The notes below the pieces were generated by a model, which made no database searches, was not told where the DNA came from, and was given only the letters and a program-made list of their open reading frames with translations. The translations under genes and the position numbers were made by a program. From an uncultured Thermococci archaeon (GTDB lineage Archaea > Methanobacteriota_B > Thermococci > Methanofastidiosales > Methanofastidiosaceae): a DNA stretch of 64,000 bases. Every line of letters begins with the position of its first letter. The stretch's first letter is position 1. Of the stretch, positions 10,249 through 50,687 are shown in pieces. The stretch spans positions 77,075-141,074 of the forward strand of contig CAZCMP010000005.1 of NCBI GenBank assembly GCA_964500005.1, read 5' to 3'.

Positions 10249-11337
10249 TTACAAGGAGTTTACAATTGAGTAGAATGCAGCCCCATATAAACTAACGTTA
10301 TAGTCAAGGATTAAATATACTGGGATAGACTTAAGAACTGCTTTTTGAGTCTGACAATAAATAAATTCATCTGAAAACTCTTTACTTTCAATTAGCCCCT
10401 TATTTTTCATTGCTATACCTCCTGCGATATACACACCCCCCAATGCAAGAGAATCTAAAGCAAAATTTTTTGCGCATCTGCCATAAAACATGCCAAATAG
10501 TCTAAAAGTTTCTCTGCATTTTAGATCTATATTTCTGTATTTTGATATGGCGGGAGGTTTATCCATAGATCTTTCTATTATTTCATCGTATTTTGTTTTT
10601 CCATAATTTCCAGTATTTTTTAAGAATGAGTATATACTCTCTATGCCCTGCCCAGACAATATATCCTCGTATCTTAAGGGGCCTTGAAGATTCTTTTTTT
10701 CTTTTATATAATTAATTAATTCAAATTCAAAAATATCTTTAATAGGAAAATCCGAATGTCCCCCTTCACTAGGAAGGGACTCATATATGCCGTTATGGTT
10801 GTTGAAATAAAGTATTGACTTTCCAAGCCCCGTTCCTGCACCGATAATTGCTTTAGTTTTTTCAAGAGTTTTCTCATTAATTCCTGGCCTAATAACCAAA
10901 ATATCTGCTGGCCGATATTTAATAAGATAATTTATTCCGTAACCTATTGCCTGGAAATCATTTATTATATGGACTATATCTAAACCGGTTTCTTTTTTAA
11001 TTTCATTTATATTGATTTTCCAATTTAAATTTGTTAAATTTATTATATTTTCTTTAATATTCACTCCAGCACATCCAAAACATGAAACTTTAATCTCTAT
11101 AGCATGATTATTTTTAGCAAATTTCAGCATTTCTTTTATAGGATGTATAATTGAGTTAAGTTTTTTGCTATTATAGCGCTTAAAAAACATCAAATAGGGA
11201 ATATTTTCACTTATACCACAAATTCCTATAGTAGTATTGGTCCCTCCAATGTCCGCAACAAGAACATATTTAGAATATAAAAGATTGTTATTTGAAACAT
11301 ATTCTATCTCTATTTCATTTACCAAATGAACACCCAA
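10249..11337 (-). CDS. glk: glucokinase (Glk family)
   Basis: Motifs VADIGGTNT, IINDF, GAGTGLG and EGGH are collinear with E. coli Glk. The start is uncertain, either TTG at 11337 or 11325. Confidence 0.75.
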   Translation of the reverse strand: MGVHLVNEIEIEYVSNNNLLYSKYVLVADIGGTNTTIGICGISENIPYLMFFKRYNSKKLNSIIHPIKEMLKFAKNNHAIEIKVSCFGCAGVNIKENIINLTNLNWKININEIKKETGLDIVHIINDFQAIGYGINYLIKYRPADILVIRPGINEKTLEKTKAIIGAGTGLGKSILYFNNHNGIYESLPSEGGHSDFPIKDIFEFELINYIKEKKNLQGPLRYEDILSGQGIESIYSFLKNTGNYGKTKYDEIIERSMDKPPAISKYRNIDLKCRETFRLFGMFYGRCAKNFALDSLALGGVYIAGGIAMKNKGLIESKEFSDEFIYCQTQKAVLKSIPVYLILDYNVSLYGAAFYSIVNSL

Positions 11338-11448
11338 AAAGTCTCTATATTTATTATCATTATATATTAATTTTTATGTTTAAATAGATTAGTAATTTCA
11401 TAATTAATAATTTAAACTAAAAGCCCGTATAATAAATGACTTGGTAAA

Positions 11449-13647
11449 ATGAAAAGATTATTAATAGTTTCAAACAGACTGCCTATTACCATAGAAAAGA
11501 ATAATGAGGGCTTAAATTTTAAGCACAGCGTGGGGGGTCTTGCTACAGGACTTGCATCATTCTATAAAAACTATGATAGCACTTGGATAGGCTGGTGTGG
11601 GCTTTCTTCAGACAAAATAAATATCGATGAAAATAAATATATAAAGTCAAAGTTATTGGAAGAATATCAAAATTACCCAGTTTTTTTATCAAAAAAAGAT
11701 ATTGAACTATATTACAATGGATTTTGTAATAGTACTTTATGGCCACTTTTTCATGGATTCACACAGTATACCGAATATATAAAAAAGAATTGGGAGACTT
11801 ATAAAAGCGTAAACGAGAAGTTCTGTGAAGCCGTATGTGAAATTGCAAATAATGGGGATATAATCTGGATTCATGATTATCATTTAATGCTACTTCCAAA
11901 ACTAATTAGAGAAAAATTGCCCCATACTTCAATAGGATTCTTCTTACATATTCCATTCCCTTCTTTTGAGATCTATAGGCTACTGCCATGGAGAAGAGAT
12001 ATCCTTGAAGGGATTCTTGAAGCTGATTTGATTGGGTTTCATATATCTGATTATTCAAGGCATTTCTTATCAGGAGTATTAAGGATATTGGGATTTGAAA
12101 ACGTTGCAGGTAAAGTCTTCACGGGGAAACATTATTCTGAAGTCGATGCATTTCCTATGGGGATAGAGTATGATAAATTTTCAAGTATGGTAAAAGATGA
12201 AAATGTTCAAAAAAAAATAAATGAGATACGGGAGAAAATAGGGGAATATAAAACTATTTTTTCGATAGATAGGCTTGATTATACAAAAGGAATTCTCCAA
12301 AGACTTGAGGCATATGACTATTTTCTCGATAAGTATCCTACTTATAGGGGAAAGGTCGAATTAATTCTTGTAACAGTCCCATCAAGAACTAAAGTTGAGC
12401 ATTATGAAAAACTTAAAAACAAGATTGATGAATATGTTGGAAAAATAAATGGAAAATATGGAAGAGTAAACTGGACGCCAATTAGATATCTATATCGTTA
12501 TATCTCATATTATTCTCTTCTTTCATTGTACAATCTTTCTGATGTAGGATTGATAACCCCCATAAGAGATGGTATGAATTTAATTGCCAAGGAGTTAATA
12601 GCTTCAAAAAATGATGGAAAGGGAGTGCTTATCCTTAGTGAAATGGCCGGTGCTTCAGTTGAACTTGGAGAGGCATTGATAGTTAATCCAAACAATGCAG
12701 AAGAAATTGCAGATGCAATTAAAAAAGGATTGGAAATGCCAATAGATGAACAGATTGAAAGAAATAGAATCATGCAAAAAAGATTAAAAAAATATAATGT
12801 GACAAGATGGGCAGAAGATTTTATAGAAAAACTTGAAGAAGTAAAAAATGAACAGAAAACACTTGAAGTAAAACTTATTCTACCTTCAACTAAAATTGGC
12901 ATGATAAATAGATACAAAAAAAGTGAAAATCGTTTATTCTTGCTCGATTATGATGGAACTTTAGTTCCATTTTCAAATGCACCCCATAAAGCATTACCGG
13001 ATAATGAATTAATTTCTATTCTAAAAAATCTATCAAATGATCCTAAAAATAATGTTGTCATAATAAGTGGGCGCGATAAAAATACTCTTGAGAATTGGTT
13101 TAAAGGTGTCAATTTAAGTATTATAGCTGAGCATGGTGGGCAAATTAAGGAAAAAGGAAGCAATTGGATTTTAACTAAACCAGAGGAAGTAGAATGGAAA
13201 GGAAGAATCTTGCCTTTATTAGAACTGTATGTTGATAGAACGCCGGGATCATTAATCGAAAGTAAGGAACTTTCTCTTGTTTGGCACTATAGAAAAGTAG
13301 ATCCAGAGTTAGCAGCTATACGGTCTAAAGAACTAAAAGCAGCTTTAATGCACCTAACTTCTAATCTAAATGTGGGAGTTTTTGAAGGTAATAAAATTAT
13401 TGAAGTTAAGAATATAAATATAAATAAAGGACATGCGACTTCAAACTGGCTTAATAAAAATAAATGGGATTTTATAGTTACAATTGGAGACGATTTCACA
13501 GATGAAGATATCTTCAAAGTAGTTCCAGAAAATGCATATTCAATAAAGGTAGGTATTGAGCCTTCTCAAGCCAAGTACAATGTTGAATCGTACAAAGAAG
13601 TTAGGATATTACTAAAAGAATTAACCTCTGTAGAATCAAATGATTAG
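11449..13647 (+). CDS. bifunctional trehalose-6-phosphate synthase (GT20) / trehalose-6-phosphate phosphatase (HAD)
   Basis: The N-terminus LIVSNRLP...GGLATGL and GFFLHIPFP are OtsA-like. The C-terminus LFLLDYDGTL and GDDFTDE is an OtsB-like HAD domain. Confidence 0.85.
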   Translation: MKRLLIVSNRLPITIEKNNEGLNFKHSVGGLATGLASFYKNYDSTWIGWCGLSSDKINIDENKYIKSKLLEEYQNYPVFLSKKDIELYYNGFCNSTLWPLFHGFTQYTEYIKKNWETYKSVNEKFCEAVCEIANNGDIIWIHDYHLMLLPKLIREKLPHTSIGFFLHIPFPSFEIYRLLPWRRDILEGILEADLIGFHISDYSRHFLSGVLRILGFENVAGKVFTGKHYSEVDAFPMGIEYDKFSSMVKDENVQKKINEIREKIGEYKTIFSIDRLDYTKGILQRLEAYDYFLDKYPTYRGKVELILVTVPSRTKVEHYEKLKNKIDEYVGKINGKYGRVNWTPIRYLYRYISYYSLLSLYNLSDVGLITPIRDGMNLIAKELIASKNDGKGVLILSEMAGASVELGEALIVNPNNAEEIADAIKKGLEMPIDEQIERNRIMQKRLKKYNVTRWAEDFIEKLEEVKNEQKTLEVKLILPSTKIGMINRYKKSENRLFLLDYDGTLVPFSNAPHKALPDNELISILKNLSNDPKNNVVIISGRDKNTLENWFKGVNLSIIAEHGGQIKEKGSNWILTKPEEVEWKGRILPLLELYVDRTPGSLIESKELSLVWHYRKVDPELAAIRSKELKAALMHLTSNLNVGVFEGNKIIEVKNININKGHATSNWLNKNKWDFIVTIGDDFTDEDIFKVVPENAYSIKVGIEPSQAKYNVESYKEVRILLKELTSVESND

Positions 13648-14405: not shown

Positions 14406-15314
14406 CTATTCCCTTAGTTTTCTCCCCGTTAGTTTCAAAAATACATCTTCAAGTGTTGCAGGTCTTGCCGTGACCCCACTATCCACACACTCTTTGAGTA
14501 TTAGATTAGTTATATCGGATATATTCTCACTGTATACCTCTACATTTTCATTTGCAACTTCGTAGTTAATATTATTTTTTTCTAGACACGCCTTTATCTC
14601 TAGAGTATTTTCTGCTTCTACAATGTGTTCTCCTACATATTTCTTAACAAGTTCTTTTGGAGTTCCTTGAACTAGTATTTCTCCATTGTCCATAATAACA
14701 AGCCTATCGCATAGCTTTGCAGCTTCTTCCATGTAGTGAGTTGTTATTATAACAGTTATTCCTTTTGAGGAAAGATCCTTTAGTTTTTCCCAGATCAGAT
14801 GTCTTGCCTGAGGGTCAAGACCAGTAGTTGGTTCATCCAAAATCAATAGCTTAGGTTCATTAATCATTGCCCTTGCTAGAACAAGCCTCCTTTTCATCCC
14901 ACCAGAAAGTTTTTCCACTGAACTATCCTTTTTTTCCGTTAGTTGAACATATTCGATAAGTTCATTAGCACGTTTCTTTGCTTCATCTATAGGAATGTCA
15001 AAATACCTTGAGTACTGAATAAGGTTTCCAATAACTGAGAAATCGGGGTCAAGATTATCCATCTGAGGAACGACGCCCATAAGCTTCTTTATTTCTTTTT
15101 GATTGTGTTCAACTTCGAGACCAAATACCTTTAGGGCCCCCCCTGTTTTTGGTGAAACACACTGGATTATCTTCATTGTAGTCGTTTTACCTGCCCCATT
15201 TGGTCCTAAAAAGCCAAAAACTTCTCCTTCCTTTACCTCGAAATTGATCTTATTGACTGCTATAATATCACTGAATTTCTTTTCGAGATTTTTGGCTTCG
15301 AGAACTATTGTCAA
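14406..15314 (-). CDS. ABC transporter ATP-binding protein
   Basis: Walker A GPNGAGKTT, the signature LSGGMKRR and Walker B LLILDEPT are present. Confidence 0.85.
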   Translation of the reverse strand: MTIVLEAKNLEKKFSDIIAVNKINFEVKEGEVFGFLGPNGAGKTTTMKIIQCVSPKTGGALKVFGLEVEHNQKEIKKLMGVVPQMDNLDPDFSVIGNLIQYSRYFDIPIDEAKKRANELIEYVQLTEKKDSSVEKLSGGMKRRLVLARAMINEPKLLILDEPTTGLDPQARHLIWEKLKDLSSKGITVIITTHYMEEAAKLCDRLVIMDNGEILVQGTPKELVKKYVGEHIVEAENTLEIKACLEKNNINYEVANENVEVYSENISDITNLILKECVDSGVTARPATLEDVFLKLTGRKLRE

Positions 15315-15340
15315 TGAAACACCGATTAGGTTAATCTATC

Positions 15341-15641
15341 TTATTTTAAAATCTTTCCGCTTATTTCCCTCTTTTTAACCTGTTTACCCTACCCTAATCG
15401 ACTAAAAAATCAAAGCTTTTTCCGCACTTTTCCACCTAAAACAAGCTCTAAATCACAACATATATCCTCCTCCATACAGCTAAAAAATCGCACTCCCCTC
15501 TGCCCCCAAAACTCCAAAAATCGACCAAATTTTTTCGATCACTCAATTTTTTTTCAATCCCATTTTTTCGAAAAAATTCACTGATGTAACAATATATATG
15601 TTACAACATATATAATTATAAAATTATTACAATATAGACTT
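15341..15641. repeat. left arm of a ~300-bp imperfect inverted repeat (partner 20320-20640)
   Basis: By manual alignment it matches the reverse complement of 20320-20640 at ~80-85% identity. Shared blocks include ttccctctttttaacc.gtttaccc and gatg.aacaatatatatgtt..aacatatataattataaaattattacaat. Confidence 0.7.
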
Positions 15642-15752
15642 TACATCTTTTACATATAATGGTATAAAAAAAACAGAGAAAGTATCCCCTGTTTGATTAT
15701 TAAATATCGCAACCTATTAATTTATATAATTAAAAATTGTTTAAATAATGTG

Positions 15753-16748
15753 ATGCTGGATAATTCTACTTCTTGGAAGCGATACTTTAAATTTAGTCCA
15801 GTTACTCCACTTATTTTTTCTGAAAATCAGGCTATAAACTATTTCGTTAAGCGAGATATTTTAGATGAAGAGCCAAACAATATGGAGTCTTTATGGATTC
15901 TTCCAAAGGTCATATCACTTTTTAATAAACAACAGAAAGATGGATCTTGGAAGTATTCAGGTGCTAGAAAAGATATTAGCTCTCAAATGATTTACAATCA
16001 AATTGAAACTTATAGGATTATCCGAGTATTGGTTGAAAAATATGGGCTAAACAACACAAATGATGAAATCTCCAAAGCTTGCGAATTTCTCTTTTCCTTT
16101 CAGACAGAAGAAGGTGATTTCAGAGGGATATATGGTAATGAATACACGCCAAATTATTCTGCTGCGATTATGGAGATGTTAATAAAAGCAGGATATGAGA
16201 AAGATGATAGAATAGACCTTGGGATCAAATGGCTTATGTCTATTAGGCAAAATGATGGTGGTTGGGCCATACCATTTAGAACAACTAAACACAAGATTAA
16301 TTATGTCTTTAATGAAAATGATAAAAATGCTCCAATCAAAAATGACCCACTTAAACCTTCATCCCATTTAATAACAGGAATAGTTTTGAGGGCATTTGCA
16401 TCACACAACCACTACAAAAAATCAATTGAGGCAAAGAGAGCGGGGAATTTTCTTAAATCTCAATTTTTTAAGAAAGATAATTATCCTGATCGTGGGACAA
16501 CTGATTATTGGGAAAAGTTAGCTTATCCATTCTGGTGGACTGATATAGTTTCCTCTCTTGATTCTCTTTCGAAACTCCAATTTAACCCAAAGGACAGTGA
16601 CATAAAAAAAGGATTAGAGTATCTTATTGATAATCAGAGGTCAGATGGAACCTGGAAAGTATATTATGGCCTCCCAAAAGATGATAACAATGATTTATGG
16701 ATAAATTTGGCTATTTGTAGAATTTTCAAGAGATTTTATTCTATATAA
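15753..16748 (+). CDS. prenyltransferase / squalene-cyclase-like (QW-motif alpha/alpha toroid) repeat protein
   Basis: It has repeated Q-x2-DG(S/G/T)W motifs (QKDGSWKYSG, QNDGGWAIPF, QRSDGTWKV) and GGF-like repeats (EEGDFRGIYG...YS.AIMEML). The track start at 15693 is TTG. The first ATG is at 15753. Confidence 0.6.
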   Translation: MLDNSTSWKRYFKFSPVTPLIFSENQAINYFVKRDILDEEPNNMESLWILPKVISLFNKQQKDGSWKYSGARKDISSQMIYNQIETYRIIRVLVEKYGLNNTNDEISKACEFLFSFQTEEGDFRGIYGNEYTPNYSAAIMEMLIKAGYEKDDRIDLGIKWLMSIRQNDGGWAIPFRTTKHKINYVFNENDKNAPIKNDPLKPSSHLITGIVLRAFASHNHYKKSIEAKRAGNFLKSQFFKKDNYPDRGTTDYWEKLAYPFWWTDIVSSLDSLSKLQFNPKDSDIKKGLEYLIDNQRSDGTWKVYYGLPKDDNNDLWINLAICRIFKRFYSI

Positions 16749-17193
16749 ATTAAATAATTAATCGATTAGGGCGGGCTAATCGACTAAAATAATTATTTTA
16801 GAAAATTATTTATTGATTAAATTTGAAAAATATAAATATCAACATATATATTTTATATAATATATATTTAAATAATTATTGCATTAAATAATTGATAATT
16901 TTTAACATTAGTAGCTAAAAATAGAATATCATGATGTTGTAGTATTTTCCTAAATAGAGATAATGGAATCGGTATTTATTAATCAAAATTTTTCGGTAGT
17001 TAGGATTAAATATTATACTTCCTTGTCAAATGACCGATAATATGGAATCTATCCCTATGCCCGATTAAGTCTTATTAAAAATGAAGGCATTATAGTTCTT
17101 TTTGTTCTATTGTCAATACAGCCACTTTACAGATTTTTAAGATAATCTCCAAAGAAGGACTATTTAAAATCTATTTATACCGGAGTAATTAAG

Positions 17194-17210
17194 ATAATTG
17201 CAATAATTAT
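17194..17210 (+). promoter_or_regulatory. copy of recurrent ATAATTGCAATAATT(TTA) box followed by a TATA-like element
   Basis: Copies of the same ~18-nt semi-palindromic box recur at 18464-18479, 18960-18977 and 20329-20346. Each is followed within 10 nt by a (T)TTATATA-like element. Confidence 0.25.
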
Positions 17211-17415
17211 ATAAAATTATATAATGTAGAATATTATAATGAATAATAATTGCAATTTCCCATTAACCCTGGATTAAATGTTATTATTGAAATTAGATTG
17301 CCATTTATTTTTGGCATAATTTTTTGAATATGATAATGGAATTGGAATTCATTTACCAACTTTTTATAGGGGATAAAAATAAATACTTTGCAATCCTATT
17401 TAATAAGGTGAGAAT

Positions 17416-17613
17416 ATGGGATTAATGTCTTGGGTAGATAAGAAATCAGAAAAAATAAGCGCCTGGGATATTGCGTTTGTAAAAATTGGTGCTATGATAT
17501 TTGGCCTTATTATCGGGGCTTACTTTCCAGTTTTAGTAAAACAGTATGTTATACTGCTTATAGTTCTTTTTATACTATTTTCCGCGAAACCTGTTTATGT
17601 ATTTTTCAAATAG
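17416..17613 (+). CDS. small hypothetical membrane protein
   Basis: The 65-aa ORF has one or two TM segments and a GGTGAG SD 6 nt upstream. Confidence 0.35.
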   Translation: MGLMSWVDKKSEKISAWDIAFVKIGAMIFGLIIGAYFPVLVKQYVILLIVLFILFSAKPVYVFFK

Positions 17614-18047
17614 TTTGCTGAAATACATTTTTATCTAATTACCGGGCTTATTTGAATAAAAAGAAGACTTTAGAGATATTAAAAATAATTTAATATCGCC
17701 AAAAATAACGGGGCGATCTGATATCTAGAACTACCTTTAGTTTGAGTCCTAATTATCCCTAAAAAGGCCCTAATATCGTCCTTTATAGCTAAATATATGA
17801 GAAAATCTGCTTTATTACGTATAATATACATTATACGCAATAAATAATAGGATAAATACTAGAAAAAAGCCAGGGTAAACAAGCCATTTAGGGCCTATTT
17901 TACCTATAATTCATATTATCTCAAGAATTTAAAAATCTTATTATTCGCAAACGGTTTTTTTAGTCGTTTAGGGTGGGCTAGATAAAAATAAAATACCTTT
18001 CTAAGAGGATATTTTTAAATGTAAAAGAACAAATAGTCTATGATATT

Positions 18048-18398
18048 ATGGCCGGAGCTTCGAAAGAAGTAAGCGAGTATATTAACAGTTTACCAGAGGA
18101 TAAAAAAGAGATAGTAAAAGCACTTAGAAAGATTATTTTATCTGTAGACCCTAGCCTAGATGAATCGTTAAAGTGGAAGCAGCCAGTATACTCAAAGAAA
18201 GGAGATATATGTTATTTATTCCCTGCTGGCAATCATGTTAATCTAGGATTCTATAACGGTACAGAGCTTAAAGATCCTAAGAAGATGCTTGATGGGATTG
18301 GAAAGACGATGAGGCATATCAAAATAAGGGATTTAGGAGATATAGATAAAGAATATTTTTGGGAATTGATATCCGATGCCATTTCCAAAGATAGATGA
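18048..18398 (+). CDS. DUF1801 (YdhG-like) domain protein
   Basis: It has the ...GKTMRHIKI.. C-terminal pattern and is a paralog of 27177-27533. Confidence 0.6.
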   Translation: MAGASKEVSEYINSLPEDKKEIVKALRKIILSVDPSLDESLKWKQPVYSKKGDICYLFPAGNHVNLGFYNGTELKDPKKMLDGIGKTMRHIKIRDLGDIDKEYFWELISDAISKDR

Positions 18399-18463
18399 TT
18401 TTGCAATAAATTTACAATAATATATTTCATATAAAATATTTTGAAATAATATTTGCAATTATA

Positions 18464-18479
18464 ACTTGCAATAATTTTA
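18464..18479 (+). promoter_or_regulatory. copy of TTGCAATAATTTTA box + TATA-like element
   Basis: The sequence acttgcaataattttacatttatatat is present here. Confidence 0.25.
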
Positions 18480-18533
18480 CATTTATATATTATTAATAAT
18501 AATGTTTTATATAATTATTGCAATTATTCTTGA

Positions 18534-18857
18534 TTATTCTTTTTCCTTCTTCAATATGAATGGCAGTGTTGTAAATGATGTCCCTATCAGCAATATTCCG
18601 ACAATTCCTATTATCCTTGCTATGGATATCGTATTCGCCCCAAGTAGAGTACCGTTAAACATTAAGAAAGCCCCGATCAAAGCTAATGATAGCCCTATTA
18701 TGAACTGGATAGTAAACCTTTTCTTATGAATATCCCCTTTTCCCTGGAATAAAGACCCTTTTCTATTACTAAATGCTACGAATAGCACTAGTAATAATAA
18801 AATAATCCCGATTATGATGAGTACCATAGCTGGATTCACCATATAAAATATAAGCAT
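18534..18857 (-). CDS. hypothetical integral membrane protein
   Basis: The 107-aa product has three predicted TM helices. The opposite-strand ORF is rejected. Confidence 0.45.
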   Translation of the reverse strand: MLIFYMVNPAMVLIIIGIILLLLVLFVAFSNRKGSLFQGKGDIHKKRFTIQFIIGLSLALIGAFLMFNGTLLGANTISIARIIGIVGILLIGTSFTTLPFILKKEKE

Positions 18858-18959
18858 AACTTCTATTTAAGGTTTTTGTTTATTAGATTAATTAAAAAAT
18901 CTTAAATATTTAATAAATATCGGAAATATGTTACTAAATCCTATTTAATATAATAAGTG

Positions 18960-18977
18960 ATAATTGCAATAATTTTA
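18960..18977 (+). promoter_or_regulatory. copy of ATAATTGCAATAATTTTA box + TATA-like element
   Basis: The sequence ataattgcaataattttatgtttatatatat is present here. Confidence 0.25.
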
Positions 18978-19095
18978 TGTTTATATATATCCTAATATAT
19001 AAATAGTTAAGATCCTAAAATACAATATTTTCCTTGTCTAGGCTACCCTAAACAAGAACAAAATACTATTAAAAATATAGAAAATTAATAATAGA

Positions 19096-20145
19096 TCAAT
19101 TAACGTTGCAGCCTTCTAGATCTGGGTGATTTTTGCATCTGTTGTTTCTTAGTATTGAAAGGAATTTATTCATTGGAAGTGTAGTTGGACAGCCAGTGTT
19201 ACCTCTTGCATTAAGTTTTGGGTCTCCGATAAAGTAACTGTCGTTAGGATCGTCGTATATGTCTATGTCCTTTCCGTTGTTGCAGAACTGATTGTAGTAC
19301 ACTTTTGTCCCTGTTGGATTTCCGTCTGCATGGACAAAGTTATGATCATGGCGTTCCTGTATACCGAATTTTGGATTATTCCTGATAATATTGTTTCTAA
19401 TTAATGTATTTGTTACTATCCCACCGATTTCAATTCCTCTATCCACTGATTTTTCGATTATGTTATTTTCAACTAGAACATCGGAGATTTCTCCATTGCC
19501 CCATGTAACTATGCTTATTCCGATATCGCCCCCACCGAGAATATGATTGTCTTTAATAAGAATGTTTTTCGCTTTTGAATTCCAAGTTACGCCCATTATT
19601 CCGGCGCTATCCCAGCCTTCCTTATAAGGTCCTCCTTCTACTATGTTTCCGATAACTTTTGAATCATTTCCTGCAACTTGAATTCCAACACGAAGATGGT
19701 TAGGTACTTTTATTTTGTTATTTAGTATATTGCAAGTTGTTCCTTCTCCACTGCCCGTTCCCTGAATAATTCCAAAAGATTCAGGCGATGTGCTGGATAA
19801 AATAATAGTAAAGCCTTCCACAGTTATCGTCCCTAGATTCTTACCATCAATATTGATTACCCTATAGCTTGTAACGCTTGTGCCAGGTCCGATTATTGTT
19901 GAATCTCTTCCCCCTACAGATTTTAATGTAATATTTGATTTATTTATCACGACGTTTTCATTATAAGTACCTGGATATACGAGTATGGTGTCACCGGCAG
20001 CTGCTGCAGTGATTGCATCTCCGATCGTTGTATATGTTTTTCCAGCTCCCACTTCACGAGTAGTAGCTGCACTTACTGGATCAATAATAGCCAATATAGA
20101 AACAACTAATAAAATTCCTATAATTATCGATTTTATTTTTTTCAT
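19096..20145 (-). CDS. secreted right-handed parallel beta-helix (pectate-lyase/NosD-like) repeat protein
   Basis: It has a signal peptide MKKIKSIIIGILLVVSILAIIDPVSA. It has beta-helix repeats with N/G/I ladders. The N-terminal TILVYPGTYNENVVI motif is shared with 25720-27084. Confidence 0.75.
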   Translation of the reverse strand: MKKIKSIIIGILLVVSILAIIDPVSAATTREVGAGKTYTTIGDAITAAAAGDTILVYPGTYNENVVINKSNITLKSVGGRDSTIIGPGTSVTSYRVINIDGKNLGTITVEGFTIILSSTSPESFGIIQGTGSGEGTTCNILNNKIKVPNHLRVGIQVAGNDSKVIGNIVEGGPYKEGWDSAGIMGVTWNSKAKNILIKDNHILGGGDIGISIVTWGNGEISDVLVENNIIEKSVDRGIEIGGIVTNTLIRNNIIRNNPKFGIQERHDHNFVHADGNPTGTKVYYNQFCNNGKDIDIYDDPNDSYFIGDPKLNARGNTGCPTTLPMNKFLSILRNNRCKNHPDLEGCNVN

Positions 20146-20319
20146 AATTTTTCACCATTTTTTTTATTAGATATAGATAATTGTACCTAATTATTAGATA
20201 TTTTATTATATATAAAGCTTTTGGTAACGATAATTATAGCTGGTAATTAAAAATTATAATTGTTAATTATTAATAGTTATTAAATATTATTATTGTTAAA
20301 CGATAACTACTAAAAAATA

Positions 20320-20640
20320 TATTGGATAATAATTGTAATAATTTTATAATTATATATGTTACAACATATATATTGTTGCATCTTGAGATTTTTAGAAAAA
20401 AATGCAGAAAAAAAATTGAGCGATGGGGGAAATTTTAATTGAGTTTTGGAAAAAATAGAGGGATAAAATGGTCTAAAGCGGCTGTGCTGGAACAGTATCG
20501 CCTATGATATATGTTGAGTAATCCGAGCCGATTTAAGGCGGAAAAGGAAGGGAAAAGCTCCGATTATTTAACCGATTATGGCGGGGGTAAACGGGTTAAA
20601 AAGAGAGGGAAAAAAGGAAATATTTTAAAATAAAATATAT
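20320..20640. repeat. right arm of the ~300-bp inverted repeat (partner 15341-15641)
   Basis: Its reverse complement aligns with 15341-15641. It also contains an ATAATTGTAATAATTTTA box at 20329-20346. Confidence 0.7.
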
Positions 20641-21866
20641 TATCCGGTGTAACCAAGTTCTCTCGCCCTGTCGAAACACTGTTGAGCTTCAGAGTATCTT
20701 CCTAAGTCCTGAAGTGTTCGCCCTTTGTTATTCCATGCGAGGGCATAGTTAGGGTCTATTGCAATAGCTTTGTCATAGGAAATTAAGGCTTCAGAGTTTT
20801 TTCCAAGGTTTCTGAGTGCTACTCCCCTATTGTTCCATGCTTGTTTATAGTCGGGATCTATTGCAAGCGCTTTATCGTATGAGATTATGGCTTCAGAAGG
20901 CCTTCCAAGGTTTCTGAGTGCTATCCCTCTGCCATACCATGCTTCTTTGATGTTTGGATCCAATGATATCGCCTTGTCGTAGACTTGTAGTGCTTCTGTG
21001 TACCTTTCAAGAAGTCTAAGTGCGGCCCCCTTACCGACCCATGCAAGGGCATAGTTTGAATCTATAGAAATCGCTTTATCAAAATTAGTTATGGCTTCAG
21101 AGTGCCTATCTAGCTCATTGTATGCATATCCCCTCCAATACCATGCTTCTTTGATGTTTGGATCTATAGAAATCGCTTTGTTATAAGATTGTATTGCTTC
21201 AGGATACCTTTCAAGATCTATGAGAGCTTTTCCTTTATTTGTCCATGCATCCTTAAAGTTTGAATCCATAGAAATAGCCTTATCAAAGCAAGTTATGGCT
21301 TCAGAATATTTCTTTTGTCCTTGAAGTAAAATCCCCTTGCCATTCCAGGAATTAACTAGGTATTTCTTAGTTTCTTTGTAATCAGGATCAAGCTCCATAA
21401 CTTTCTCAAAATTTTTTATTGCTTCATCATATTTTGCTTGATCATAAAAAGACACGCCTTCGTTGTATAACTTTTCAGCTTCAGATGCGCCTGGAAATAA
21501 AATAAGGGCGGCTACCAAAATAATAACTACTCCAATGCCCCCTATTGCAATTATCTTTTTTTTGCCTTTAGGCGTGGGAGATTCCTGATAATTTTTTGCT
21601 TCGGCTTTAGGGGGTTCCATTGTTTTTTCAAAAGGAGTCCCACATTGCCCACAAACCTGATCAGACAATGCCATTTTAGATCCACAGTTTTGACATATCT
21701 TACCCTCTGCTTCTACCTTTGTGCCACAAGATGGACAAAAGAGAGAGCCTCTAGGAAAAGAACTATTACATTTACTGCATTTATTTTCGTCCATTATATC
21801 CCATTTAGCCATATTATTTAGCATATATAAGGGTATGGAAAATAAAATAAATATTCTTTCATGCAT
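20640..21866 (-). CDS. double zinc-ribbon / TM / TPR-repeat protein
   Basis: The N-terminus has CxxC...CxxC x2. It has one TM helix and about 8 TPR repeats (AW..KG.AL..L.RY.EA...YDKAI.IDPN). The C-terminus is ELGYTG. It is a paralog of 38103-38837. Confidence 0.8.
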   Translation of the reverse strand: MHERIFILFSIPLYMLNNMAKWDIMDENKCSKCNSSFPRGSLFCPSCGTKVEAEGKICQNCGSKMALSDQVCGQCGTPFEKTMEPPKAEAKNYQESPTPKGKKKIIAIGGIGVVIILVAALILFPGASEAEKLYNEGVSFYDQAKYDEAIKNFEKVMELDPDYKETKKYLVNSWNGKGILLQGQKKYSEAITCFDKAISMDSNFKDAWTNKGKALIDLERYPEAIQSYNKAISIDPNIKEAWYWRGYAYNELDRHSEAITNFDKAISIDSNYALAWVGKGAALRLLERYTEALQVYDKAISLDPNIKEAWYGRGIALRNLGRPSEAIISYDKALAIDPDYKQAWNNRGVALRNLGKNSEALISYDKAIAIDPNYALAWNNKGRTLQDLGRYSEAQQCFDRARELGYTG

Positions 21867-21927
21867 TTAATCTGAATTATTAACATGCATAGGGAAAAGA
21901 TTTATTATATTAATATCCTTAATTTCA

Positions 21928-22167
21928 TTGTTACCAAATTTTATGGAGAGTTGTGTTATGAGGATTGTTAAAAAAGATATGATGAGGCAACAGAAAATAC
22001 AGAGGCAAGAACAAGACCCTGAAAGGCAAGCGCAGGACGAGCAATTGAAAAAGCAACTAGAAGAAATGAAAAAACAGAAGATAAAAAAGCAGAAACTAGA
22101 TGAAAAGGAGATAGAGAAGAGTAAAAATAAACAGGAACAAAATAAAGAAAAGATGAAAATTAAATAA
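21928..22167 (+). CDS. hypothetical K/E/Q-rich low-complexity protein
   Basis: The 79-aa product is highly charged and of low complexity, and may be spurious. Confidence 0.2.
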   Translation: MLPNFMESCVMRIVKKDMMRQQKIQRQEQDPERQAQDEQLKKQLEEMKKQKIKKQKLDEKEIEKSKNKQEQNKEKMKIK

Positions 22168-22233
22168 AATTAAGTTTTATTCTTTCTGTCAAGATCCAGT
22201 ATAACATTAATTATTGCAATAGGAAAGATCTAG

Positions 22234-22679
22234 ATGATTAGACCCCTTCAAAAAGATGAAGAAATTCCTTATAATCTATTATTGCTAGCCGATGAAACAA
22301 TTGATGCTATTAATAGGTATATCAATGATTCTGAAATTTTCATATTTGAAAAGAATAACGAAACTATAGCGATCTATGTACTCCAAAAAATAAGTGATGA
22401 CACTATTGAAATAAAAAATATAGCAGTGGATACAAACATCAAGGGCAAGGCATAGGTAAGCTACTTCTGAGAGATGCTATTTCCAGAGCAAAAGGATTCA
22501 AAACTATTGTTATTGGAACGGGTGATATAGCAATTAAACAGTTGTATCTATACCAGAAAGAAGGTTTTGAGATATTTGACATTAAAAAAAGCTTTTACCT
22601 AGATAACTATCCAAATCCGATATATGAAAATGGGATACAGCTTAAAGATATGGTAATGCTAAAGAAAGAACTGATTTAA
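22234..22679 (+). pseudogene. GNAT family N-acetyltransferase interrupted by a frameshift
   Basis: The N-terminal 73 codons (frame 1) end at TAG 22453. The GNAT motif A continues in frame 3 from ~22443 (G(Q)GIGKLLLRDAISRAKGFKTIVIGTG...EGFEI) and runs to the stop at 22677-22679. Confidence 0.6.
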
Positions 22680-27636: not shown

Positions 27637-28956
27637 TTATGAGACAACAAAGTCTATTGTGGCAGTGTCAAATACGCCACTTGGCGAGTATGCGACCATT
27701 GTAACCTTGTATGTGCCTGAAGGAACGTTTGAACCCAATGTGAATAATGCAGAGTATGCGCCTATGTTGTGTGCCTTTAGCTTTTGTGTTTCCGGTACAG
27801 TTTGAACTGTGACGCCTTCTGGAAGCCCGTCAAATCTTAACCTTGTGTCGTTTTGTGTAAAGAACCCTCTGTTCTCTACCTGTAGGAACACCTGTTGGCT
27901 ACCGGGGGACATTTCAAATGATGATATGATCTTACCATCTTGGATTACAGTTTCCCCTCCTGGGACTGAGAATGTCTCAATGTCTACCTTTGGGTAGAGT
28001 ATTGTGGCAGGGAGCGATGGATTCGGTTTGCAGTCGTAGCAGCATTTCTGCTCAAGTGAGAATAATAATCGACCTTTTCCCTCGATTGTGATTGTCCTTG
28101 GAACGCCTTGAATCATGACAACATCAGGCATTTGGTCAAAAGGCCTCTCACCATTGTACCAGACAACCATGTGTGGGTAATTATTGGCTAGTACTGCAAA
28201 GCTTCGGACTTCACATGTAGGAAGGCTTAATGGTACGCCGTTTATCACAATTTCTCCACATCCAGCAAATAGCATAATCACATACTCGTTGACATCACAT
28301 TTGTAGTTTGCAGGCATGTTGTATCCGCTGCAATTTGTTGCACATTCAAGTGAAGGGTTGCTTCCACACCCCCTCATGTCAAAGCAACAGCTATTTATCA
28401 GCTTTCTATCCTCTGAACTAAAATCCCCTTCGCCAGCACACGGTGGAGGCTCATTAAAGAATGTTCTGGAGTCGTTGCATGATGGAACATTGATAACCAA
28501 TGATTTAATTTCTGCTCCACCCACATATTCAAAGTATGATTGTTTACCATATAGATAACATTCAGAGCTTTCACAACTTTCAAGGCATTGATTAAAAAAT
28601 GGCATATCGCCACAAGATTCATAGCAGTAAGCTAAGCATGACTGTGTGGATTTTGGCATATTTACACATAATAGATCCCTTGCATAGCATCCTTTCACAT
28701 TGCTAATGTATATCTCCATCCAGTAAGGATGGAACCATCTTTGTTGGCACTCAAAAAAAGCATTGTATGAGCAGTCATCACATGGATCATATTGGTCAAC
28801 TGTTTGAGGTTGAGAACACGACTTCATGCAATCATTGAAGATGCATTCTTGACATCCCGAAGGAAGAGTATCTTCGCATGGTTCTTGTGAACTTGCAATA
28901 GAAAAACTTGCTATTCCCATAAGGAAAACTATAGTTAAAGCTAATATTTTTTTCAT
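27637..28956 (-). CDS. cysteine-rich secreted protein with C-terminal Ig-like/CARDB-like beta-sandwich domain (paralog A)
   Basis: It has a signal peptide MKKILALTIVFLMGIASFSIASS. More than 40 Cys lie in the N-terminal two-thirds. The C-terminal ~170 aa are ~95% identical to 45926-47329. Confidence 0.75.
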   Translation of the reverse strand: MKKILALTIVFLMGIASFSIASSQEPCEDTLPSGCQECIFNDCMKSCSQPQTVDQYDPCDDCSYNAFFECQQRWFHPYWMEIYISNVKGCYARDLLCVNMPKSTQSCLAYCYESCGDMPFFNQCLESCESSECYLYGKQSYFEYVGGAEIKSLVINVPSCNDSRTFFNEPPPCAGEGDFSSEDRKLINSCCFDMRGCGSNPSLECATNCSGYNMPANYKCDVNEYVIMLFAGCGEIVINGVPLSLPTCEVRSFAVLANNYPHMVVWYNGERPFDQMPDVVMIQGVPRTITIEGKGRLLFSLEQKCCYDCKPNPSLPATILYPKVDIETFSVPGGETVIQDGKIISSFEMSPGSQQVFLQVENRGFFTQNDTRLRFDGLPEGVTVQTVPETQKLKAHNIGAYSALFTLGSNVPSGTYKVTMVAYSPSGVFDTATIDFVVS

Positions 28957-37024: not shown

Positions 37025-37092
37025 AAAATAAATTTTTATTTTTATTAACTATAAATAATTCAAGCGCAGATGTGGGTGGAGATATACAAATA

Positions 37093-37266
37093 TTAGGCCT
37101 TCTTAAGTTGTTTTAATCCGAGTGAAACAAGAGCAATTCCTATTACTATTACCAATACGTTGTTTATTAGGGCGCCCATATTAGGGTTCTGTAGTAAGCC
37201 TGTTATTGCAGACAACGCTGCTACCACTCCAATAGTTAAAAGTATGTATCCTAAAACTTTTCCCAT
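37093..37266 (-). CDS. small (57 aa) membrane protein not in ORF track
   Basis: The product reads MGKVLGYILLTIGVVAALSAITGLLQNPNMGALINNVLVIVIGIALVSLGLKQLKKA. A GGTGA SD is 6 nt upstream of the ATG. Confidence 0.35.
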   Translation of the reverse strand: MGKVLGYILLTIGVVAALSAITGLLQNPNMGALINNVLVIVIGIALVSLGLKQLKKA

Positions 37267-37302
37267 ATTTAATCACCGTCAAAATATCTTCCTAATTTTT
37301 CG

Positions 37303-37530
37303 CTATTTCTTAGATTCTTCTTGCTCTTGTGTTATCTGTTTAGAATATTTTCCCCAGTTATTCTGACAAGATTTACAGTGCCAACAAGGTGAGTCCTCGT
37401 TTACTAAACACCCTCCTAAAAGAACTTCATGAATCTCTTCCTTCTCAAATAACTCATCTGATGGCATACCGTATACTATAGGCACTATATCATTTGATCC
37501 ACATTTTGGGCATTTCGAGTTTTTTTCCAT
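37303..37530 (-). CDS. small zinc-ribbon protein
   Basis: It has CPKCGS...CWHCKSC. Confidence 0.45.
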   Translation of the reverse strand: MEKNSKCPKCGSNDIVPIVYGMPSDELFEKEEIHEVLLGGCLVNEDSPCWHCKSCQNNWGKYSKQITQEQEESKK

Positions 37531-37667
37531 ATAATAAATATTGAATATATATCTATTTAAGTTTATCGAAACACTAGATGTGACATCACTAATTTGAATT
37601 AGATTTATAAATAAAAGTAATATTTTATATGTAAGGCCTTAGTGGCCAAACAAAGGGAGTAGTTAAA

Positions 37668-38006
37668 ATGTATGGTGAAAGAAGAGGGGCACGTGATAGG
37701 CCTCCTCGTGAAATGCATAAAGTGGTTTGTCAAGAATGCGGACAAGAAACTGAAGTCCCATTCGAGCCAGATGGTACAAGACCTGTTTACTGCAAAGAAT
37801 GCTTCCAGAAAAAGAATCCAAGAAGAGGGGAAGGTAGGCCCCATCGTGGCGGAAGAATGGGTGGGCGTGATAGGCCTCCCCGTGAAATGCATAAGACAGT
37901 TTGTCAAGAATGCGGACAAGAAACTGAAGTCCCATTCGAGCCAGATGGTACAAAACCTGTTTATTGCAAAGAATGCTTCCAGAAAAAGAAACCAAGAAGA
38001 TTCTAA
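37668..38006 (+). CDS. tandemly duplicated C4 zinc-ribbon protein with Arg/Gly-rich linkers
   Basis: It has two copies of RDRPPREMHK.VCQECGQETEVPFEPDGT.PVYCKECFQKK. A GGAG-like SD is upstream. The three overlapping ORFs in this interval are rejected as repeat artefacts. Confidence 0.6.
   Translation: MYGERRGARDRPPREMHKVVCQECGQETEVPFEPDGTRPVYCKECFQKKNPRRGEGRPHRGGRMGGRDRPPREMHKTVCQECGQETEVPFEPDGTKPVYCKECFQKKKPRRF
37692..38003. repeat. 174-bp tandem direct repeat (1.8 copies) inside the zinc-ribbon gene
   Basis: Copies 37692-37865 and 37866-38003 are more than 95% identical at the nucleotide level. Confidence 0.8.
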
Positions 38007-41293: not shown

Positions 41294-41352
41294 ATATTAT
41301 TTATAAATATCTCTGATGACAGTTCAGTAAAAATAAATTCTTATGTTAATTT

Positions 41353-41622
41353 TCAAGTATTCTTTTTATTTGTCAAATATTCATTTAACGCCTTTCCAAT
41401 TTTATCCCAGAATACGAATGGAATAAAAAGGAATGCAAAGACCCCAACAATTGACCATCCTATAGTCAATCCAACAGCTATAATTATAATTAAAATAGAT
41501 AAGACTTTTTTTAATGTATTTGATTTTTCATCCTTTGGCAAAGTTTCTGCTCCACAGTAAGGGCATGCCTCTAAACTACCTTCCATTAAGCTCCCACAGT
41601 TTGGGCATTTATGGTCTTCCAT
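41353..41622 (-). CDS. zinc-ribbon membrane protein
   Basis: It has CPNCGS...CPYCG followed by two TM helices. Confidence 0.45.
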   Translation of the reverse strand: MEDHKCPNCGSLMEGSLEACPYCGAETLPKDEKSNTLKKVLSILIIIIAVGLTIGWSIVGVFAFLFIPFVFWDKIGKALNEYLTNKKNT

Positions 41623-41694
41623 AAGAATCGTTATATATTAGTTTTTCATATATTTAAAGATATTGAGAAAATTAATAATAAAAAAGAAAAAAAA

Positions 41695-42015
41695 TTAAAA
41701 TTCCTCTATTCGAGATTCGTACTCATCGATCCCATATTTTAGATTTTCTAATAATCTAGCAATAGGAGTATAATCCTCATTCTTGTTCTTATCTCTTTGC
41801 TCGCAAATTAAATTATCACATTTAGCCACATGATTTCTTAACGCTCTTACCTTCTCTCTTTCACTTTCAAAACTTTGTTCATAAATGCTCTGTAAAGAAT
41901 ATATTTCTTTTTTCATTATATCTGCAAATTCCCCTAATCTTCCTTCTCCAAAAGAGGTTACAAATTGATTGAAATCTTCTTTTGCTTTATCTATATCCCT
42001 TTCAAAAGATTCCAT
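41695..42015 (-). CDS. hypothetical coiled-coil protein
   Basis: The 106-aa product is charged and helical. Confidence 0.35.
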   Translation of the reverse strand: MESFERDIDKAKEDFNQFVTSFGEGRLGEFADIMKKEIYSLQSIYEQSFESEREKVRALRNHVAKCDNLICEQRDKNKNEDYTPIARLLENLKYGIDEYESRIEEF

Positions 42016-42210
42016 AACCCCACCTAAATATTTTGTGTGGTTAATCTATTTAGAATAAACTAACCACCATATTATAGGCAGTACAAATATATAGTTTTAA
42101 CTGCAATAGATTCAACATTTAAATGACAATATTAAATAAAATATATATTATGAATATATATTTATTATAAAATCAAAGGTAGCTTATTTATCTCTTTTAG
42201 CAAGATATTA

Positions 42211-50671: not shown

Positions 50672-50687
50672 ATAAATATTTATTTTT

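Follow-up and report, generated by a model that had tools for sequence, protein, structure and literature searches.

The window analysed here, a 64-kb stretch of chromosomal DNA from a Candidatus Methanofastidiosum archaeon, very probably contains the dif locus of the chromosome. A 28-bp predicted target of the recombinase XerA lies amid nested inverted repeats whose recurring boxes are putative protein-binding sites. The AT-rich, gene-poor stretch most likely surrounds the place where this archaeon unlinks joined sister chromosomes, and a puzzling region thereby gains a concrete predicted function. An initial annotation of this DNA had described the recurring modules but missed both the dif-type site and the mirror symmetry around it.

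Between positions 15315 and 20639, the coding fraction is 0.55, as compared to 0.81 in the remainder of the window. The gaps 16749-17415, 17614-18047 and 18858-19095 have a GC content of 18-28% and the highest A-tract density among the intergenic regions of the window. The intervals 16749-18047 and 18858-19095 had been reported as almost free of ORFs. They are indeed AT-rich and gene-poor, but the first one is not empty, as it holds a real 65-aa gene at 17416-17613. The predicted dif site falls in the gap 17614-18047.

17814-17841, no strand: predicted dif site (XerA target), 28 bp, ATTACGTATAA / TATACA / TTATACGCAAT

The definition of an archaeal dif site was drawn from published work (PMC2958812, PMC8371274, PMC11840125). 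Such sites have an 11-6-11 layout and are non-coding (PMC2958812). Here, two 11-bp arms, symmetric at 10 of 11 positions, flank a 6-bp spacer and form a TAA-N6-TTA core. The site is non-coding, without a conserved ORF on either strand in four species. It is single in the 64-kb window even when up to 9 mismatches are allowed, so that no second dif-like or att-like site is found there at this threshold. No other symmetric 11-6-11 TAA/TTA site was observed near the locus. The site is identical at 18 of 28 positions to the Thermococcus kodakarensis dif, TTTTGATATAATGTACCTTATATGACAA. Comparison with the E. coli dif, which we take to be GGTGCGCATAATGTATATTATGTTAAAT, gives 21 identical positions out of 28, including the ATAATGTATATTAT core. 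In L004, L005 and L008, three relatives, 27-28 nt of the site are invariant within flanks that are about 73% identical. The sequence is also present in L041, L063, L065, L066 and L067-L073. Overall, at least 11 Methanofastidiosum genomes share 27-28 nt of the site without any change, with flanks 73-83% identical.

The 20-nt core CGTATAATATACATTATACG, searched as an exact match in 185,579 species genomes, was found 53 times, always as one exact copy per species-representative genome. Our base-composition estimate of the chance expectation is about 2-3 matches. The outer arm bases vary among lineages yet stay symmetric. Among the 53 genomes, about 17-20 unrelated ones have a tyrosine recombinase gene of the XerA type with one end no more than about 30-500 nt from the core. 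Two of these core-linked recombinases score 271 and 292 bits on the NF040815 recomb_XerA_Arch model, the cut-off of which is 220. No xerA gene was found within the 64-kb window. XerA genes are present in MAGs named Methanofastidiosia, and in one of them (L078) the same dif core lies 17 nt upstream of xerA. The L076/L077 lineage has a divergent 11-6-11 variant 19 nt upstream of xerA. Some of the contigs carrying the dif locus described here are labelled Thermococci. One and the same core is common to DPANN archaea, to bacteria of the candidate phyla radiation (SR1, Peregrinibacteria) and to several euryarchaeal lineages. Because it is so widely shared, it provides a simple anchor by which dif, and probably also the terminus, can be located in MAGs that are fragmented. 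Within the 64 kb, no clear switch of GC skew or k-mer polarity, as would mark the replication termination region, was seen at dif; genes to the right of the site show a 70:30 bias toward pointing at it.

The 28-mer is interpreted as a Xer/dif dimer-resolution site because it is unique in the window, conserved and T. kodakarensis-like, and because its core stands beside XerA genes. According to established Xer chemistry, one XerA monomer would bind each 11-bp arm and strands would be cut at both edges of the 6-bp spacer. Recombination between the two dif copies of a chromosome dimer would then yield monomers. A full-text search found no paper containing both 'Methanofastidiosa' and 'dif', and we present the site as the first predicted dif for Methanofastidiosum.

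The long AT-rich spacers and their modules make up three nested pairs of imperfect inverted-repeat arms, with dif at the centre and a reach of ±2.8 kb.

17183-17359, no strand: inner left arm (pair 1), with a 62-65-nt palindromic unit at 17194-17258 and boxes at 17196 (plus) and 17245 (minus)
18359-18539, no strand: inner right arm (pair 1), with tandem palindromic units at 18401-18462 and 18463-18527 and boxes at 18464 (plus) and 18513 (minus)
16735-16905, no strand: middle left arm (pair 2), with a GC-box hairpin, TCGATTAGGGCGGGCTAATCGA, at 16762-16783, an AT palindrome and a minus-strand box at about 16871-16888
18910-19088, no strand: middle right arm (pair 2), with a 14-mer at 18937 and an exact box at 18960-18977 that has a TATA-like element after it
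15329-15673, no strand: outer left arm (pair 3), whose inner end has a variant box, a TATA-like element and the palindrome TATATATGTTACAACATATATA
20290-20645, no strand: outer right arm (pair 3), with a box at 20331

The arms of pair 1 are 68% identical over 183 nt (E 1e-16), with an axis at +34 nt from dif. Those of pair 2 are 62% identical over 181 nt (axis +84) and those of pair 3 are 70% identical over 359 nt (E 1e-46, axis +160 nt from dif). In all seven genomes for which both flanks are available, there are inverted repeats whose axis lies at most 35 nt from dif. In L004 and L008, a single imperfect palindrome spans everything between -660 and +640, its axis being at -16 and -3, respectively. 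At least 11 genomes share the core block 17187-18528, in syntenic position and with 77-82% identity. Outside Methanofastidiosum, the top inverted repeat is centred on dif in 5 of 17 loci, where about 2.5 are expected, which is only suggestive of large dif-centred repeats in other lineages.

The two boxes of the inner left arm, at -626 and -577 from dif, have the same offsets in all relatives. Conservation of the inner right arm between species stops at about 18525-18528. The middle left arm module follows the last gene of the cluster in L005 and L008 and occurs twice in L004, on either side of CorA and cupredoxin cargo. The box of the middle right arm is at +1140 from dif and is found on the same strand at +1060 to +1190 in relatives; this arm also contains a GC-box variant at 19039-19056. 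The outer left arm bears a GC box at 15385 and an ABC-transporter promoter at its outer end. It stands where relatives have a 67-aa ORF, and L063 has a homologue of it at -1277 to -1031. The inner half of the outer right arm is homologous to L005 12226-12404, L004 15632-15750 and L065 4991-5338 (syntenic position).

The arms arose long ago, when a few units were duplicated in inverted and in tandem orientation. These units are a 62-nt palindrome with AATTGCAATAATT boxes at its end, a box followed by a TATA-like element and ATATATTGTT, the GC box, and a small membrane-protein gene with its own promoter. Arms within a genome are less identical than orthologous arms of different species, which indicates that the duplication is old.

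The box ATAATTGCAATAATTTTA is exact at 18960 only. Copies with one mismatch are at 17194, 20329 and 18510 (minus strand), while the copy at 18462 has three. The full copies listed in the initial annotation are present, all but the one at 18960 with mismatches, and its variants at 15626, 18512 and 22207 were recovered, each of them on the minus strand. Every box copy is followed by a TTTATATA-like element, as had been proposed. The 13-mer core AATTGCAATAATT, with at most one mismatch, has 8 matches in the 64 kb against 1.2 expected, a number reached in none of 100 shuffles. Seven of the eight are within 17196-22221, and the box has no match in 36 kb of other Methanofastidiosum DNA. The modules are therefore specific to the locus and do not reflect generic promoter composition. 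Across 11 genomes, boxes occupy mirror positions, at about -1040 (minus), -645 (plus) and -595 (minus) to the left of dif and at about +505/+575 (plus), +620/+690 (minus) and +1060 to +1190 (plus) to the right. In the present genome, AATTGCAATAATT boxes are also found at ±2.5 kb from dif. The central part of the box, ATTGCAAT, is palindromic.

The other short motifs were retrieved with small shifts. The GC box is at 16764 (previously 16765) and 17966, whereas 17885 is only a loose variant. Its occurrence in both inverted-repeat arms holds on the left (15385, minus strand), the copy on the right, near 20574, being weaker. The motif GATAATGGAAT(C/T)GG is exact at 16959 and 17332 (previously 16953 and 17333), but the third copy, at 17036, is an indel variant. 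The 14-mer AATCCTATTTAATA is exact at 17392 (previously 17390) and 18937, with 0.01 expected.

Genes and conserved blocks of the locus are as follows.

15753-16748, plus strand: squalene-cyclase-like (alpha/alpha-toroid) gene, 331 aa, Pfam PF13243, between the outer and middle left arms
16950-17144, plus strand: decayed tandem copy of the 65-aa gene unit, in which 16959-17012 repeats the promoter block and 17089-17144 is what remains of the 3' end
17416-17613, plus strand: gene of a 65-aa two-helix membrane protein, 63-89% identical in relatives at the protein level, with changes of the synonymous type
17614-17813, no strand: conserved non-coding block left of dif, CCTTTAGTTTGAGTCCTAATTATCCCTAAAAAGGCCCTAATATCGTCC..., kept in 8 genomes
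17842-18047, no strand: conserved non-coding block right of dif, including TAAAAATCTTATTATT, which is invariant, and the GC box TTTTTTAGTCGTTTAGGGTGGGCTAG at 17956-17980
18048-18398, plus strand: DUF1801 gene, Pfam PF08818, present in L041, L065 and L066
18534-18857, minus strand: gene of a 107-aa membrane protein, transcribed toward dif, conserved in L005 (67%), L004 and L008
19096-20145, minus strand: gene of a secreted beta-helix protein, transcribed toward dif, Pfam PF13229, between the middle and outer right arms

The genes between the arms mostly point at dif, and the gene set differs from species to species. In L004, L005 and L008 the genes converge on dif. The same holds for most genes in the window, except for the DUF1801 gene, whose plus-strand orientation means that the pair of genes directly bordering dif does not converge. 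The squalene-cyclase-like gene, whose homologues are named Methanofastidiosum, is transcribed toward dif. The beta-helix gene is missing from the syntenic position in L005. The 65-aa gene is preceded by a promoter block (17330-17415) composed of GATAATGGAATTGG, a TTTTTATAGG TATA and a GGTGA ribosome-binding site; its product matched no known family. Relatives have an inverted paralog of this gene across dif. In one clade, the DUF1801 gene occupies the slot of this inverted 63-66-aa paralog, and L004, L005 and L008 have the paralog instead. No conserved ORF and no conserved RNA structure were found in the left block, 17614-17813.

Part of the first ORF-free stretch corresponds to the decayed tandem copy of the 65-aa unit, which the initial annotation had missed. 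Direct repeats 16777-17048 and 17143-17422 are 62% identical and 17090-17144 and 17558-17612 are 71% identical. A tblastn search detects a weak remnant there (E 0.008).

Several explanations may account for the modules. Because these carry TATA-like elements, their interpretation as promoter/operator units bound by one factor is a live one, and we regard it as a realistic possibility, though short of an even chance. Small transcription units (the 65-aa, 107-aa, beta-helix and cyclase-like genes) would be controlled by one factor recognising ATTGCAAT, the symmetry would be a residue of inverted gene duplication and dif would lie among these units by chance. This resembles the proposal of the initial annotation and is compatible with the 28-mer being dif. 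The small genes are true paralogs, inverted, and the boxes are specific to the locus, each with its TATA-like element. If the modules are read as TATA then box, the box falls at the expected transcription start, an operator position, and this reading points at dif, matching the convergent direction of the genes. As promoters, the orientation of the boxes is ambiguous. However, the best BRE/TATA candidates of the 65-aa, DUF1801, beta-helix and ABC genes, as judged by eye from the sequence, are 30-60 nt upstream of the start codons and are box-free. In addition, the two 62-nt units at 18401-18527 sit between the 3' ends of two convergent genes, and the box at about -1040 is conserved even though it faces or abuts the 3' end of a gene (radical SAM, cupredoxin or cyclase-like). 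More generally, box positions are fixed relative to dif while the intervening genes change. It is rather unlikely that the nested palindrome is a neutral scar of rearrangement at dif or the terminus, with modules lacking a function of their own. Xer recombination of antiparallel dif sites could for instance swap one flank for an inverted copy of the other. Such an event would agree with symmetry axes only a few nucleotides from the dif centre in L004 and L008, with almost symmetric dif arms and spacer, with a cargo that varies by species and with the description of the Thermococcales terminus region as rearrangement-prone (PMC2958812). Nevertheless, the arms are 60-70% identical within a genome versus 73-83% for orthologous arms across species. 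Despite this old duplication, the boxes and their distances to dif are near-invariant in both arms in 11 genomes, a pattern indicating that the boxes are under purifying selection.

The modules and the conserved blocks adjacent to dif might also encode small RNAs transcribed from the box/TATA elements, as the initial annotation had envisaged. The non-coding blocks are 77-83% identical between species, as compared to 74% for the neighbouring 331-aa coding sequence, and hairpins exist, such as TCGATTAGGGCGGGCTAATCGA at 16762-16783. For 17614-17850, the folding z-score of the minus strand is -2.1, but this value is mostly due to the dif palindrome itself, and the plus strand gives -0.9. RNAalifold consensus folds of eight species are weak (-1.7 and -6.3 kcal/mol), with a covariation term that lends no support. 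The scan with Rfam covariance models, a check proposed at the outset, yielded no match at the gathering threshold and none at E ≤1. With neither Rfam nor covariation in its favour, this explanation appears improbable. A remnant of an integrated virus, plasmid or Xer-exploiting element at dif, close to the decayed mobile element suggested earlier, is highly improbable. The outer arms do resemble long terminal inverted repeats around about 5 kb, the cargo is variable, with ORFans near dif in relatives, and an rve-family transposase gene and a RusA gene are nearby in L008. On the other hand, integrase, transposase and replication genes are absent between the arms, a comparison with 50,697 phage and 72,556 plasmid records detected nothing similar, and the chromosomal synteny of the core block is preserved in at least 11 genomes. 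An integrative mobile element exploiting Xer (IMEX) was also considered and was rejected, as no second dif-like site bounds an element within the window at ≤9 mismatches.

Returning to the dif locus itself, the near-invariant boxes are predicted sites for a sequence-specific dimeric DNA-binding protein. Together with A-tract-rich DNA, this protein would mark the flanks of dif symmetrically. It may work as an operator-bound factor where convergent transcription units have their TATA elements, form an architectural flank, or do both. The architectural role is considered because the sequence surrounding T. kodakarensis dif stalls Smc-ScpAB on both sides of dif. We also put forward, as a doubtful but distinctive proposal, that the mirror array of boxes and 62-nt units is a dedicated accessory system for an FtsK-less archaeal Xer, with sites for a sequence-specific protein on both flanks. 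By analogy with the cer/psi accessory sequences, the array might serve as a topological filter, imposing the geometry of XerA synapsis or its directionality. It might alternatively form polar barriers to transcription, replication forks or SMC, insulating dif on both sides. If true, the dif boundary would be specified by sequence, whereas the Thermococcus version depends on a non-specific nucleoid protein. Box symmetry could also be simply inherited from the inverted duplication. The 62-nt unit and the box offer specific DNA baits for studying how FtsK-less archaea confine XerA to dimer resolution, and the same baits serve the question of why chromosome-domain boundaries coincide with dif.

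The closest precedent for the locus is the AT-rich dif-surrounding sequence of Thermococcales, of which it would be the counterpart. Thermococcales dif sites are not next to xerA and have conserved AT-rich flanks with flanking inverted repeats (PMC2958812). These repeats, also noted for Methanosphaera stadtmanae dif, were proposed as possible partner-binding sites (PMC2958812). As in Thermococcales (Cortez et al. 2010, PMC2958812), the site described here is a 28-bp, single-copy, non-coding sequence whose 11-bp arms form an imperfect inverted repeat around a 6-bp spacer; it is conserved among relatives, bordered by conserved AT-rich flanks and apart from xerA. The arm sequence is different, being here ATTRCGTATAA. 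Three nested pairs and a 13-nt box at fixed mirror positions are found here, and no such detail was described for Thermococcales. Binding of XerA to dif was shown in Pyrococcus abyssi by EMSA and in vitro recombination (PMC2958812), whereas the present dif is predicted from sequence.

In T. kodakarensis, dif was deleted and XerA binding was shown by ChIP (PMC11840125). The site lies in 1.9 kb of intergenic DNA, the sequence of which is both required for an Smc boundary and enough to form one; the boundary is TrmBL2-dependent and correlates with A-tracts (PMC11840125). This boundary 1 (Nat Commun 2025, PMC11840125) resembles our locus in that dif is in long AT-rich, A-tract-rich intergenic DNA, that genes on either side converge on it and that the lineages are related. 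It is, however, a single 1.9-kb gap, where 3C-seq showed Smc-ScpAB to be stalled via the non-specific nucleoid protein TrmBL2. The region studied here is split by small genes and has palindromic boxes that are sequence-specific.

The bacterial XerCD/dif system of E. coli has the same 11-6-11 layout. It uses two recombinases and takes its direction from FtsK and KOPS, whereas archaea have a single XerA and no FtsK. The near-perfect symmetry of the predicted dif arms fits a single recombinase. Finally, the xerA-linked dif sites of DPANN and other archaea (L015, L033, L055, L078 and others) have an identical 20-nt core, CGTATAATATACATTATACG. In these lineages dif is 10-500 nt from xerA, whereas the Methanofastidiosum dif stands apart from xerA, in a palindromic locus.

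We identify 17814-17841 as the predicted dif site of the chromosome because its features, its linkage to xerA and its matches to known dif sequences fit the published definition of archaeal dif: 11-bp imperfect inverted repeats around a 6-bp spacer, non-coding, single copy and conserved (PMC2958812, PMC8371274). In Thermococcales, dif is not adjacent to xerA (PMC2958812). The site has an 11-6-11 layout, ATTACGTATAA-TATACA-TTATACGCAAT, with arms symmetric at 10 of 11 positions, and is single in the window even when up to 9 mismatches are allowed. The 27-mer TACGTATAATATACATTATACGCAATA is invariant in a four-species alignment. Its 20-nt core was scanned against one genome per species (185,579 species), yielding 53 matches, one per genome throughout. 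Core-bearing groups are Methanofastidiosum, many DPANN archaea and MAGs labelled Methanosarcinales, Methanomicrobia or Halobacteria, together with candidate-phyla-radiation bacteria (SR1, Peregrinibacteria) and a few other bacteria. Bases outside the core vary by lineage, with symmetry kept. In the 1.44-Mb Methanofastidiosum sequence JAXGZJ010000001.1, dif is located at about 1,295,876. Of its 28 positions, the site shares 21 with E. coli dif and 18 with T. kodakarensis dif (the latter sequence from PMC11840125).

A tyrosine recombinase gene lies about 30-500 nt from the core in ca 17-20 of the other core-bearing genomes. Against the NCBIfam equivalog model recomb_XerA_Arch (cut-off 220), two of the recombinase genes reach 271 and 292 bits. 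Other Methanofastidiosia carry dif-type sites 17-19 nt upstream of xerA. Among the retrieved loci, the core is often 10-100 nt upstream of xerA (L015, L033, L055, L078, L076 and others), and at L076 a TrmB-family gene is directly upstream of xerA. There is no xerA gene within the 64-kb window; XerA genes for this group were found only in MAGs named Methanofastidiosia. As marks of a replication terminus, k-mer polarity and GC skew show no clear switch at dif in the 64 kb, where gene orientation confounds both.

The window has a GC content of about 32% and looks chromosomal. Its genes include those for aldehyde:ferredoxin oxidoreductase, phosphoglucose isomerase, glucokinase, an OtsAB fusion, an ABC-2 exporter and SelO. 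The coding share falls to 55% in 15315-20639, versus approximately 81% elsewhere in the window. GC content in the gaps of this region is 18-28%, and A-tracts are denser there than in any other intergenic DNA of the window. The initial annotation had described 16749-19095 as AT-rich, gene-poor and assembled from recurring modules, and this observation was largely right. Three further long gaps (650-920 nt) without an ORF of at least 120 aa, at 37025-37671, 41294-42210 and 50009-50687, are devoid of the box described below.

The motifs first noticed are present in the sequence, with small corrections to their coordinates, and repeat analysis revealed that they are portions of larger repeats. One of them is a semi-palindromic box with the 13-mer core AATTGCAATAATT. 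Allowing one mismatch, it has 8 matches in the window versus 1.2 expected, 7 of them within 17196-22221. Exact copies of the 14-mer AATCCTATTTAATA are found at 17392 and 18937, and those of GATAATGGAATYGG at 16959 and 17332. The larger repeats form three nested inverted pairs and one tandem duplication.

Repeat features around the predicted dif site, with axes as offsets from it
15329-15673 and 20290-20645: outer inverted arms (pair 3), 70% identity over ~350 nt, axis +160
15385, minus strand: GC-rich box copy
16735-16905 and 18910-19088: middle inverted arms (pair 2), axis +84
16764: GC-rich box copy
16777-17048 and 17143-17422: tandem duplication, the two copies approximately equivalent
17183-17359 and 18359-18539: inner inverted arms (pair 1), 68% identity over 183 nt, axis +34
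17966: GC-rich box copy

The box is part of a unit with the consensus order AATTGCAATAATT, TATAAAA, TATATT, AATATA. Units at ±0.6 kb from dif end in an inverted box; those at ±1.1 kb and ±2.5 kb run on into ATATATTGTT. One palindromic unit, 62-65 nt long, occupies 17194-17258. The promoter orientation of these units is ambiguous. A decayed 3' remnant of a 65-aa ORF follows the first tandem copy (16777-17048). The box was also considered as a XerA half-site; ATTGCAATAAT and ATTGCGTATAA agree at only 6 of 11 positions, and this resemblance was not counted as evidence. A box variant at 22209-22221 (minus strand) is located just upstream of a GNAT acetyltransferase gene (22234-22679) that is broken by a frameshift; the acetyl-CoA motif QGQGIGKLLL can be read in a different frame near 22440. 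Either the gene has become a pseudogene or the assembly is in error here. The product of 20640-21866 comprises an N-terminal double zinc ribbon, a membrane segment and eight TPR repeats, which are 102-nt units at the DNA level.

Homologues of the squalene-cyclase-like gene (15753-16748) carry the name Candidatus Methanofastidiosum, and contigs from four other species (L004-L013) were compared with the window. In these relatives, the order is ABC-2 exporter (minus strand), a 67-aa ORF, the cyclase-like gene, a gene of ~414 aa and a radical SAM/SPASM gene, then a long non-coding stretch, a 65-aa gene (plus strand), its inverted 63-66-aa paralog (minus strand) and a gene of ~108 aa (minus strand). 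The window is devoid of the 67-aa, 414-aa and radical SAM genes, and no remnants of them were found in its ORF-free stretches; two paralogs of the 414-aa protein are encoded elsewhere in the window (27643-28338 and 45929-46624). At L005 5917-9923, and also at L008 and L011, the exporter-side genes encode a 67-aa membrane ORF, a squalene-cyclase-like protein, a ~414-aa secreted protein and a radical SAM/SPASM enzyme. They may form a peptide-modification cluster, of which the window retains only the cyclase-like gene. L008 also has an rve-family transposase/integrase gene (11065-12009) inserted between the cyclase-like and 411-aa genes, and a RusA-like resolvase gene (20696-20996) about 5 kb past dif, which suggests that the surroundings of dif collect mobile DNA. 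Contig L066 (DAKN01000078.1), which bears the label Candidatus Pacearchaeota UBA284, shares 75% identity with the window over ~1.8 kb and shows the complete dif architecture of Methanofastidiosum; mis-binning is probable.

Region 17187-17842 is 83.5% identical to L005, above the adjoining coding sequence (74%). Between species, conservation of the core block is bounded by palindromic box units, starting at 17187 and ending at ~18528. In every species compared, module 16758-16890 is found again past the final gene of the cluster; L004 has two copies, bracketing a CorA and cupredoxin insert. In self-comparison, each of the seven Methanofastidiosum genomes with both flanks has its inverted-repeat axis no more than 35 nt from the centre of dif. 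Across these genomes the arms span about -650 to -470 and +530 to +715, with a second pair at about -1150 to -850 and +950 to +1250. In L004 and L008, -660 to +640 is a single imperfect palindrome (axis at -16 and -3, respectively). Mirror positions of the box are kept in 11 genomes: -1040 (minus), -645 (plus), -595 (minus), +505/+575 (plus), +620/+690 (minus) and +1060 to +1190 (plus). The genes between the arms are mostly directed at dif and their content is species-specific (for example a radical SAM cluster, CorA with cupredoxin, DUF1801, a beta-helix protein and ORFans). Arms are 60-70% identical within one genome versus 73-83% for orthologous arms across species; the inverted duplication is therefore old. 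Beyond Methanofastidiosum, the top inverted repeat is dif-centred in 5 of 17 loci versus ~2.5 expected, and many of the 53 other core loci have no repeat at all, so that a general occurrence of dif-centred palindromes is only suggestive.

A neutral palindrome arising from dif-centred rearrangement accounts for the symmetry axis but leaves the conservation of the boxes unexplained; the near-invariant boxes in both arms argue for selection on them. The distribution of the box rules out generic promoter composition: 7 of its 8 window matches are at the locus, and 36 kb of other Methanofastidiosum DNA has none. Thus, for the box, over the window and these relatives' sequences, the similar intergenic density that would have indicated generic composition is not observed, and the modules are locus-specific. 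A reading of the AT-rich repeats as a replication origin with ORB-like boxes was set aside, as no orc1/cdc6 gene is found among the annotated ORFs and the central element is of Xer type.

The initial annotation had proposed several small transcription units under one regulator, possibly ncRNAs or small proteins, or alternatively the decayed regulatory region of a mobile element. Structured RNA genes find no support: Rfam gave no match in the whole window (gathering threshold) or in 15000-21000 (E <=1), and the conserved block left of dif has weak RNAalifold energies and no covariation (both strands, 8 species). Single-sequence folds are unremarkable save for the dif palindrome itself. Six-frame comparison of four species for small ORFs hidden in the dif-flanking blocks returned only frame-inconsistent fragments. 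As to a mobile element or IMEX, we found no pseudo-dif or other second dif-like site in the window, no recombinase or replication gene between the arms and no similarity to phages or plasmids (blastn, distant mode), and synteny is conserved. tRNA and tmRNA genes are absent, hence there is no tRNA-type att site. What stands of that interpretation is that the modules are specific to the locus, resemble promoters and could be recognised by a single factor; what it missed is that they are organised around dif, in the middle of nested and conserved mirror repeats.

The sequences themselves show the site and how conserved it is, its repeated proximity to xerA in other genomes, the mirror architecture and the locus-specific box. 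By the known Xer mechanism, XerA would bind both arms of dif, and strand exchange at the spacer borders would resolve chromosome dimers. By analogy, and given their conservation, the boxes would serve as sites for a dimeric, sequence-specific protein on either side of dif. They may be operators of the convergent genes, architectural sites or both. Cortez et al. noted that a partner of XerA may bind the inverted repeats beside Thermococcales dif (PMC2958812). In function, the nearest precedent is the intergenic sequence surrounding dif in T. kodakarensis, which is necessary and sufficient for a Smc-ScpAB domain boundary; this boundary activity is TrmBL2-dependent and correlates with A-tracts (PMC11840125). 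The locus is of a known kind, an archaeal dif with AT-rich surrounding sequence, in which the flanking box array is unusually well defined and conserved.
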